From: Candidatus Jordarchaeia archaeon
GTDB lineage: Archaea > Asgardarchaeota > Jordiarchaeia > Jordiarchaeales > Jordiarchaeaceae
DNA: 17,464 nt
Direction of reading: 5' to 3'
Assembly (NCBI GenBank): GCA_029856435.1
Contig: JAHQXB010000027.1
Span: 1 to 17,464 of the forward strand
Part shown: one piece after another, positions 13,581-15,125 of the stretch
How the letters are laid out: every line of letters starts with the position of its first letter
Position numbering within the stretch: the stretch's first letter is position 1
Notes under the pieces: generated by a model
Seen by the model: the letters and a program-made list of their open reading frames with translations, nothing else
What the model was told of the DNA's origin: nothing
Databases searched by the model: none
Program-made: the position numbers and the translations under genes

Positions 13581-13833
13581 TCAAGTCGCCTCTCAAATCG
13601 AATTATCCGTCACTCACGTAATTTTGTTGTTTTTAAAACGTTTTAGTTTGGATTTAATGTTATATTTAACTCTTACGTGCCCAAGACCGTCGAGAATGGT
13701 CCAGAAAGAGATTAGTAACTGGAAAAATCGTTAAAATTCGGGAACCACATATTATTATAACAAAAATTTTAAAGTTAAACCCCAAAAAAAGTGTGACACT
13801 ACCAGCCTAGCTACCTGTTTTGGAAAATTTTCC

Positions 13834-13894
13834 TGAAGCATAGAAAAATGTTGTTTTAAGTCGCAAATCGGCTTTTGAAGCACAGAAAAATGCC
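13834..13894. repeat. Local 17-bp direct repeat TGAAGCAyAGAAAAATG, overlapping a dispersed repeat of about 43 bp
   Basis: Copies at 13834-13850 and 13876-13892 differ by one base. The stretch 13853-13894 also resembles 17259-17302. Confidence 0.5.
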
Positions 13895-13991
13895 TGTTTG
13901 GAGCCCGGAAAAGGAATATAAAATTTGGAAACAGCACCAAGAAGGGCTCCTTCAAGCCTCTACCCGTGCGGAAACTAATTAGTTTGTAAGG

Positions 13992-14068
13992 GCGGCACCA
14001 ACCTTGCGAGGTGGAGTGTTCCCTGCAGACCTCCATAAAGGGTTTTGTCTGCAGGTCATTACTGCCGC
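13992..14068 (-). promoter_or_regulatory. Eukaryote-like SECIS element in the selD 3' UTR
   Basis: RNA: GCGGCA-GUA-AUGA-CCUGCAGAC-AAAA-CCCUUUAUGGAG-GUCUGCAGG-GAA-...-UGCCGC. It shows helix I (6 bp), the AUGA/GA core, a perfect 9-bp helix II and apical unpaired As. It begins 1 nt after the selD stop. Confidence 0.9.
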
Positions 14069-14069
14069 T

Positions 14070-15125
14070 TTAAACTTCAAGTATTTCGGCCTTGCTGAAG
14101 TCTACTTTTCCAGACCCTTTACTAGTTTTTCCTATCTCGTAATGGGCTACAGATCTCCTGTCAAGTTCGTGTTCCAAATTCTCCTTTAAATCACTTGGGA
14201 CAAAGAGAATCATGCCGCCGGCGGTCTCCGCTGATTCGCCGGATTGCAGACCATAGCCGAAGAGATCCGAAATTTGTAAGGTGCCTTTAATGATGGGTAG
14301 GGTATGAATGGTGATGTTTACTTTGCTGCTTTCCGCTATTCCCTGTGTGTGGCCGAGTAAGCCGAAGCCTGTGATATCGGTGGATGCGTGGGGTTTAACT
14401 ATCCTCATGGCCTCGGCCACGGGTTTATTCGAGGTGGTCATCAATTTAATTCCTTTTTCGACCATTTCTTCTGCCTCCTTTCTTGAAACCAGCCCAAGGA
14501 TTTGTTCTGCCACGGCGGCGTCTCGTAATCCTCTGTAGACAGCCATTGCGGGTTGTGTGCCTAAGGGTTTGGTGAGTATAATTATATCTCCGGGTTGTGC
14601 GTCTTTGTGGGTTACTATCTGGTCGGGGTGGGCTATTCCTGAGGCTACGCCTCCTACTAGGGGCCAGGGGTTTATTATGGTGTGTCCCCCGGTAATGGTT
14701 GTGGTGCCCAGCTCACCTATCAAGTCGTTTATTCCCCGTAGCATTTCCTCAGCCATCTTGAGGGGCATGTTTTCAGGGATTCCCAGTATTGCAAGAAAGC
14801 TCACTACATCGGTTCCACCTATGGCTTATGCATGTAAATCGGGATGATTTACATTGTACACATCGTTGGTGACGTTTACTGCGGCAATTTTGCCCTGAAT
14901 GTAGGGATCGTCAACATTGGGGGTTATGAAGTCCACAGTTTCTATGAGCACCAAGTCGCTTCGAATTTTTATAACTGCTGCGTCCTCTCCGATTCCTCCC
15001 ACAACTCTGCCTGAGGGGTCCTTTTTAACGCCCACCTTTTCCAAGAGGCTAATAAGCTCTGTTTGGGGCAACTTACAGGATCATCCGTGAAGAGTTACTG
15101 CCTTCGTTAACCTATAATCCTCCAG
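14070..15125 (-). CDS. selD: Selenophosphate synthetase, Sec-containing and interrupted; join(complement 14856..15125, 14070..14825), 341 aa after removing 30 nt
   Basis: Reconstructed protein MEDYRLTKAVTLHG-U-SCKLPQTEL...EDAAV...ETVDFITPNVDDPYIQGKIAAVNVTNDVY|AIGGTDVVSFLAILG...GGHT...PGDIIILTKPLGT...DITGFGLLGH...ETAGG. UGA is at 15081-15083 and the probable CTG start at 15123-15125, 8 nt after GGAGGTG. The two track ORFs (14826..15071 and 14070..14804) share one frame. Confidence 0.93.
14826..14855 (-). other. Candidate 30-nt archaeal mRNA intron with a relaxed bulge-helix-bulge motif
   Basis: The insert AATGTAAATCATCCCGATTTACATGCATAA sits between codons TAC (Y90) and GCC (A91). It has a 9-bp stem AUGUAAAUC/GAUUUACAU, a 4-bp central helix GUGU/GCAU, and 3-nt bulges AC^A and AA^G. 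It ends in an in-frame TAA. Confidence 0.8.

Follow-up and report, generated by a model that had tools for sequence, protein, structure and literature searches.

A three-way-junction SECIS element behind selD of Jordarchaeia and Freyarchaeia, with a third arm that appears to be standard in Asgard archaea

The locus studied here raises the question of whether an additional hairpin within a eukaryote-type SECIS element of an archaeon is an embellishment of one gene or lineage, a separate structure that shares the 3' UTR, or an integral part of the element itself. The window, i.e. the whole stretch of DNA that was analysed, is the entire 17.5-kb contig C35 of a MAG (3.54 Mb, 181 contigs, 97.8% complete), and it carries a selD gene whose stop codon is the TAA at 14072-14070 and whose start is uncertain, being possibly the CTG at 15125-15123 (Table 1). 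The in-frame UGA of this gene occupies the catalytic position and is also found in the selD loci L007-L012 and L023. The element is located on the minus strand at 14068-13992, with its 5' end 1 nt past the selD stop codon, and hence in the 3' UTR of selD, in which an in-frame UGA occupies a known Sec position, as is required of an Asgard type II element.

The selD gene contains a second interruption. The downstream coding sequence is readable only if the 30-nt insert listed in Table 1 is removed from the mRNA. The insert consists of a 9-bp hairpin between GUGU-ACA and GCAU-AAG, cuts in the bulges give DVY-AIGG exactly, and judged from these features it looks like a bulge-helix-bulge intron. 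It has been kept in loci L007-L012, where the hairpin is fully compensatory. The selD open frame is 251 aa long in 9 of 11 Jordarchaeia genomes, including the present one, and 256 aa in another (G002), the match in the remaining genome (G001) being partial. Outside the Jordarchaeia the open frame is ~329 aa, and the short frame occurs in no other Asgard genome that was compared.

The earlier note, which was made from the letters of the window, had surmised an Asgard-like host, and the selD gene bears this out. Its nearest public counterparts are loci of Jordarchaeia/Freyarchaeia MAGs, with identities of 97, 96 and 93% for the top three, followed by 79% to the complete Freyarchaeia SRVP19 chromosome and 77% to Ca. 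Jordarchaeum madagascariense, which together span the range of 77-97%; identities to a Jordarchaeales MAG and to Atabeyarchaeum are 52% and 47%, respectively. The same note had made its interpretation dependent on the presence of tRNA-Sec, SelB, SepSecS and PSTK. The three proteins are encoded, clustered within 7 kb on contig C117 of this MAG, and SelB is 463 aa long and has the archaeal domain III (aSelB_III). The tRNA-Sec part of the expectation was left unsupported: no tRNA-Sec was found in the MAG with Rfam RF01852, with aragorn, with a hand-made 9/4 pattern allowing an optional intron, or by blastn with a candidate from a congener, and the Sec-cluster region on C117 contains no Rfam RNA. 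It should be noted that this miss is uninformative, because only ~7 tRNA genes are detectable in the whole of this 3.5-Mb, 98%-complete assembly. Most of them are 92-107 nt long, which suggests that they contain introns. Congeners provide sub-threshold RF01852 matches only (27 bits versus the 47-bit cut-off), and the best candidate, in the complete congener (G006:C1:810418-810533), has the UCA anticodon arm GGA-CUUCAAA-UCC plus an insertion. A tRNA-Sec of Jordarchaeia has been drawn by Sun et al. 2021.

The Sec cluster as a whole (C117:22887-30612; L070 4887-12612) comprises PSTK, two ~355-aa paralogues, a ketol-acid reductoisomerase, SelB, SepSecS and a 233-aa protein. The two paralogues have weak matches to nucleotidyltransferases and the 233-aa protein has no Pfam family, and these unassigned genes are candidates for Sec-related factors. 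Eukaryotic SECIS elements are read by SBP2, an L7Ae-domain protein, and no reader of this type was found in the present genome. Only two open frames of the genome match the L7Ae family (PF01248), and their lengths, 123 and 103 aa, are the sizes of ribosomal L7Ae and L30e; since there are only these two small proteins, we conclude that no SBP2-like protein is encoded. SBP2 has likewise been reported to be absent from Lokiarchaeota and other Asgard archaea.

Helix I of the element has 6 bp and helix II 9 bp, the core reads AUGA..GA, the apical region contains AAAA and a CC/GG ministem, and the 3' side bears a hairpin of 17 nt, exactly as the earlier note had described it; the coordinates given there are correct to the base on the minus strand. 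Sequence and fold thus confirm a eukaryote-type SECIS element (AUGA..GA, apical A-run, type II-like) situated 3' of an archaeal Sec-type selD. The three-way junction is the minimum free energy (MFE) structure returned by RNAfold (-31.7 kcal/mol, z = -2.5; equalled by 1 of 200 shuffles), in which the third arm (P3) directly adjoins helix I with a linker of 0 nt. The G and the A of AUGA are the likely bulged-strand partners of tandem sheared G.A pairs with the 3' GA, a non-Watson-Crick pairing that we infer from the core sequence. Two other sequence features lie nearby: the perfect palindrome AAACTAATTAGTTT at window positions 13972-13985, 7 nt past the SECIS element, which has been kept in the closest relatives, and two copies of TGAAGCAYAGAAAAATG at 13830-13900, within the 490-nt spacer ahead of a nuo-like operon.

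Table 1. Features of selD and its SECIS element in the window, and the other SECIS elements of the genome
Feature	Position	Strand	Basis or remark
selD (selenophosphate synthetase)	14070..15125	-	AIRS and AIRS_C domains, read-through translation, orthologues
In-frame UGA (Sec), motif LHG-U-SCK	15081..15083	-	~1.0 kb upstream of the SECIS element
30-nt selD insert with in-frame UAA, after ...NDVY	14826..14855	-	bulge-helix-bulge intron-like
Helix I (P1), 5' strand GCGGCA	14063..14068	-	pairs with 13992-13997
5' junction GUA and AUGA core (AUGA = 14059-14056)	14056..14062	-	read from sequence
Helix II (P2), 5' strand CCUGCAGAC	14047..14055	-	9 perfect pairs with 14022-14030
Apical region: unpaired AAAA, CC/GG ministem, 5-nt loop, then AG	14031..14046	-	RNAfold
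Helix II (P2), 3' strand GUCUGCAGG	14022..14030	-	RNAfold and covariation
3' core GA (14021-14020) and connector ACACU, non-bulged strand	14015..14021	-	read from sequence
Third arm (P3) CCACCU-CGCA-AGG(U)UGG, 6 bp, one bulged U	13998..14014	-	RNAfold MFE and covariation
Helix I (P1), 3' strand UGCCGC	13992..13997	-	pairs with 14063-14068; RNAfold and covariation
SECIS of hdrA with two Sec codons	C180:27775-27851		arm present
SECIS of vhuD/mvhD with two Sec codons	C180:28308-28388		arm present
SECIS of hdrA-vhuD fusion with four Sec codons	C99:3020-3092		arm present

The type of SECIS element to which this structure belongs is already known. The SPS/selD form of lokiSECIS and the Asgard type II elements (PMC4989117, PMC11227280) have in common with it the AUGA..GA core, a helix II of ~9 bp, unpaired adenines, an apical ministem and a position in the 3' UTR of a Sec-type selD, and their hosts likewise have archaeal-type SelB, PSTK and SepSecS, and no SBP2. 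According to Mariotti et al. 2016, lokiSECIS consists of AUGA, a 9-bp stem, an A-rich loop and GA, and a separate SPS/selD form has an extra apical stem (PMC4989117). Huang et al. 2024 defined type I and type II eSECIS-like elements by a core, an upper stem and a loop at the apex, the lower part having no conserved features (PMC11227280), a model that is restated in a 2026 review. The present element agrees with the definition of Huang et al. 2024 in its core, where (A/G)UGA...(G/A)A and a 7-15-bp upper stem containing no more than 2 mismatches are prescribed (here AUGA, 9 perfect bp and GA), and in its apical part, for which adenines, a ministem of 2-8 bp, a bulge of 4-12 nt and a loop of 2-6 nt are prescribed (here AAAA, 2 bp and a 5-nt loop). 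The difference lies below the core: the published type II models are confined to core, upper stem and apical region, what remains being handled as an internal loop plus a lower stem, whereas here there is in addition a conserved arm with a GCA loop. No such 3' arm is mentioned in the text of Mariotti et al. 2016, of Huang et al. 2024 or of the 2026 review (as distinct from the figures and from the supplement of Mariotti et al.), and a full-text search of the literature for three-way junctions in connection with SECIS brought up nothing relevant. The third arm is thus a refinement of a known type, and one that appears to be undescribed.

Eukaryotic SECIS elements of form 2 (Rfam SECIS_1, RF00031) resemble the element in their AUGA..GA kink-turn-like core, AAR-type adenines, ministem, 3' UTR position and helix I below the internal loop. 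They differ from it in that helix II is shorter here, an extra helix is present on the 3' strand, and no SBP2-like protein is encoded by the host. To our knowledge, eukaryotic SECIS elements have no such third arm. Scoring against SECIS covariance models had been proposed as a check in the earlier note; the curated Rfam models yielded no SECIS family, either at the gathering threshold in the whole window or at E <= 10 in the region 13900-14150, and the only match obtained in these searches was a chance one to mir-2996.

The euryarchaeal SECIS elements (Methanococcales, Methanopyrus) share the 3' UTR site and the same Sec machinery with the present element, and the methanococcal VhuD elements also have AUGA and GAC/AAC around the main stem as well as an extra outer stem. 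They contain, however, a GAA_A bulge followed by three G-C pairs, in place of which the present sequence has AUGA/GA in a junction of 7 x 7 nt, next to a helix II of 9 bp. The idea that the arm and a 'GAA' after the core are the homologue of the euryarchaeal GAA_A element was dropped, as the third base after GA is not conserved and as the methanococcal main stem lies between AUGA and GAC/AAC, which is the position of helix II (PMC4989117). According to the 2026 review, the Sec-using archaea are limited to Methanococcales, Methanopyrales and Asgard archaea. As a separate observation, two genomes labelled as Bathyarchaeia, with the loci L013 (JAWBZV010000017.1) and L056 (OY970340.1, a complete chromosome), have a Sec-type selD (HG-UGA-SCK) and encode SepSecS; an R2 search (see below) behind selD of these two loci found no Asgard-type SECIS element.

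If the arm is a functional part of the element, its helix should have been preserved by compensatory changes in related loci. Five congeneric selD loci retain the element straight after the stop codon, and in six Jordarchaeia/Freyarchaeia genomes the orthologous elements have compensatory changes and fold, each independently, into the three-way junction. The same junction is formed by the selD element of Atabeyarchaeum, which is unrelated in sequence. In the more distant congeners L009 and L010 the first pair of helix II has changed from C-G to U-A, the arm, CCACCU/AGGUUGG in the present element, has become CCACA/UGUGG and CCAUCC/GGGUGG, and the ministem has 3 bp (CCC/GGG) versus 2 bp (CC/GG) here. 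We then aligned 15 Asgard selD elements from 6 families, an alignment that is model-fitted and so leans towards the structure. Standard pairs make up 89.8% of the cells in these 15 sequences versus 65% in shuffles, 0 of 500 shuffles being as good, and 21 of 23 pairs have changed on both sides; as a control, sliding the 3' partners by 1-3 columns lowers the pairing to 33-48%. The support extends to every helix: P1 is 95% paired with 5 of 6 pairs changed on both sides, P2 has double changes across families in all 9 pairs, the ministem, in which CG, GC and AU variants occur, is 88% paired, and the P3 arm is 94% paired with both-side changes in 5 of 6 pairs. The arm is also returned by unconstrained folds of single sequences. 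In the 15 held-out elements among the 28 that were aligned, it is 97% paired. Thus, all four helices covary in the relatives, the arm included, and the extra hairpin, which had been proposed in the earlier note as turning the internal loop into a three-way junction, is a real one according to both the MFE structure and the covariation.

The 28 aligned elements further show which parts of the junction are fixed and which are free to vary. At least 13 different stem sequences occur in the arm, and its loop holds GCA, GCG or AGC in 27 of the 28. AUGA is present in 26 (the others have GUGA and UUGA, once each), GA follows helix II in all of them (as AA in two), and the apical A-run is kept. The connector after GA is variable in length and sequence, and the linker between the arm and helix I measures 0-3 nt. 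Core or arm are weak or unclear in two vhuD elements (L103 and L105).

One reading, proposed as a possibility in the earlier note, is that the hairpin is a lineage- or selD-specific embellishment with a dedicated partner in Jordarchaeia. This could be argued from the close similarity, within the genus, of the arm (CCACC..GCAA..GGUGG) and of helix I (GCGGC/GCCGC), and from the fact that selD elements are of type II, unlike most other Asgard SECIS elements. The distribution of the arm speaks against it. A covariance model built from six selD-element sequences (R1) gave matches straight behind selD in other Asgard families (E 1.4e-5 to 0.4). A second model, built from 15 selD-element sequences (R2), recovered held-out selD elements of families f2, f4, f17, f19, f21 and f31 (E 1e-6 to 9e-3), as well as the hdrA/vhuD SECIS elements of this genome and of f17, f20 and f28, with the arm aligned. 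At E <= 1e-3, R2 matched 22 of 151 Asgard genomes, all of them in families in which selD was found: 5/5 genomes in f1, 1/5 in f2, 13/25 in f20, a family absent from the training set, and 2/5 in f28. At this threshold it had no match in families without selD found (f8 0/14, f14 0/19, f11 0/7, f24 0/7, f25 0/5 and others). Those of the listed matches that were compared with gene positions (G178, G219, G221 and G160) are directly behind selD. On inspection by eye, each of the nine sampled Asgard families that carry selD (f2, f4, f15, f17, f19, f20, f21, f28 and f31) has a hairpin after the GA core of its selD element, and the arm is present on most vhuD-type SECIS elements of f17, f20 and f28, which align to R2 over the full length. 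An arm with differing stems thus occupies the same place behind selD in nine families and on hdrA/vhuD elements, and we consider a lineage- or gene-specific embellishment to be highly improbable. Judged from this sequence comparison, SECIS elements of Asgard archaea in general have the third arm as a standard part that is under selection.

The other selenoprotein genes of the genome, which the earlier note had named as a way of finding out whether the arm is a peculiarity of selD, point in the same direction, as all three further SECIS elements of the genome have it (Table 1). Their loci extend over C180:25714-28388 and C99:594-3092. On C180, hdrA and vhuD have one SECIS element each, in contrast to the shared SECIS element that has been reported for Lokiarchaeota. 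The stop codon of the hdrA-vhuD fusion on C99 is probably the UGA of the AUGA core of its own SECIS element. These elements were located through a search for the vhuD family combined with a three-way-junction descriptor; whole-MAG scans with R1 and R2, in which 150 of ~1,500 candidates were scored, returned the selD element only. A scan of the genome for the AUGA-stem-GA pattern produced mostly noise. Descriptor candidates on C56 and C120 were set aside, there being no supporting gene with an in-frame UGA, and the descriptor also caught AT-rich repeats as well as a multi-copy element that has nothing to do with Sec. The latter is a near-identical repeat of at least 230 nt, seen at C59:43530-43808, C175:5180-5406, C103:24-104, C106:107-187 and C26:12560-12650, mostly at contig ends. 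The descriptor had picked up its GUGAUGA...CAGAG hairpin; the repeat has no match among the Rfam families and probably represents a mobile element at which the assembly breaks.

It might also be supposed that the hairpin is an element in its own right, serving the stability or the termination of the mRNA 3' end, or that it is a neutral by-product of the local sequence. It is short and GC-rich and lies in the 3' UTR, and T-rich tracts are found in this selD 3' UTR a few dozen bases beyond it. An independent hairpin would, however, not be expected to be enclosed by a helix I whose covarying strands pair across the arm, nor to keep a fixed place with respect to both the GA core and helix I, from which the linker separates it by 0-3 nt, nor to preserve a loop motif while its stem changes; the confinement of the model matches to families with selD found argues against it as well. 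As regards termination, archaea rely on oligo-T tracts and not on hairpins. We give this second reading just as little credence as that of an embellishment. Least probable of all, and very nearly negligible in our judgement, is that we are dealing with a generic kink-turn for L7Ae, one that regulates the translation of selD or the stability of its mRNA, and not with a signal for Sec insertion: many kink-turns are bound by archaeal L7Ae, and L7Ae is encoded in the genome, but the identified elements of the same architecture follow genes (selD, hdrA and vhuD) in which known Sec positions hold an in-frame UGA, the apical A-run is conserved although an L7Ae site needs none, and solved k-junctions are not folded by L7Ae, the third helix blocking access (PMC10573300).

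We therefore regard it as very probable, on the basis of sequence, predicted fold and covariation, that the structure is the SECIS element of the selD mRNA of Jordarchaeia/Freyarchaeia, that it combines the published Asgard type II core with a lower half in the form of a three-way junction, and that the arm is standard in Asgard SECIS elements. As such, the 3' UTR element would direct the UGA located ~1 kb upstream to be read as Sec, by means of archaeal SelB and Sec-tRNA(Sec). In the core, G and A of AUGA would form the sheared pairs with the A and G, respectively, of the 3' GA, and the core would kink. Going by what is established for AUGA..GA cores, the kink-turn would have helix II as its non-canonical arm and helix I as its canonical one. 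P3 is inserted in the 3' strand, with the G.A core on one side and helix I on the other, and may be stacked end to end with the latter; the 0-nt linker by which P3 is joined to P1 fits such coaxial stacking. The arm might then either stabilise the kinked fold in the absence of SBP2, or present its GCA loop to a partner, which could be SelB, the ribosome or another protein. The apical adenines would play the same role as they do in eukaryotes.

The arrangement resembles that of k-junctions, in which a third helix is located on the non-bulged strand and the C helix is coaxial with the T helix (PMC10573300). Like the k-junctions of the TPP riboswitch and the DUF-3268 RNA (PMC4005666, PMC10573300), the element has a kink-turn core and a third helix opposite the loop that abuts the C helix (here helix I), and at the level of secondary structure the topology, with P3 between the core GA and helix I, is the same in this element and 27 others. 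The likeness is topological only, the biological role of k-junctions being different from that of SECIS elements. It should also be noted that k-junctions have a 3-nt loop and a 2-nt connector, compared with 5 nt here for both GUAAU, ahead of the GA on the 5' strand, and ACACU, past the GA on the 3' strand, strands that moreover vary in length between elements; since these junction strands are longer than those in solved k-junctions, the k-junction fold is to be taken as an analogy and not as membership of the class. In k-junctions the T helix obstructs the face to which L7Ae binds, and the protein therefore does not fold them (PMC10573300). No archaeal SECIS-binding protein is known, and archaeal SelB has been reported not to bind SECIS elements. 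By this analogy, and as a preferred but tentative idea whose full version we consider rather doubtful, Asgard SECIS elements could be self-folding k-junctions, in which the arm holds the kink without SBP2 or L7Ae and the GCA loop contacts domain IV of SelB, the ribosome or another factor, eukaryotes having lost the arm when SBP2 took over. If this were true, the three-armed form would be the ancestral, pre-eukaryotic SECIS element.

In summary, the extra hairpin in the selD element of this Jordarchaeia genome seems to belong to Asgard SECIS elements as a group. Search models that include the arm, which the published Asgard models omit, provide a more specific detector of these elements, because among 151 genomes R2 matched only families in which selD was found. 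A covarying arm with a fixed loop motif also offers a target that can be mutated for testing how an archaeal SECIS element is linked to the ribosome, and its conservation alters the picture of what the pre-eukaryotic SECIS element looked like.
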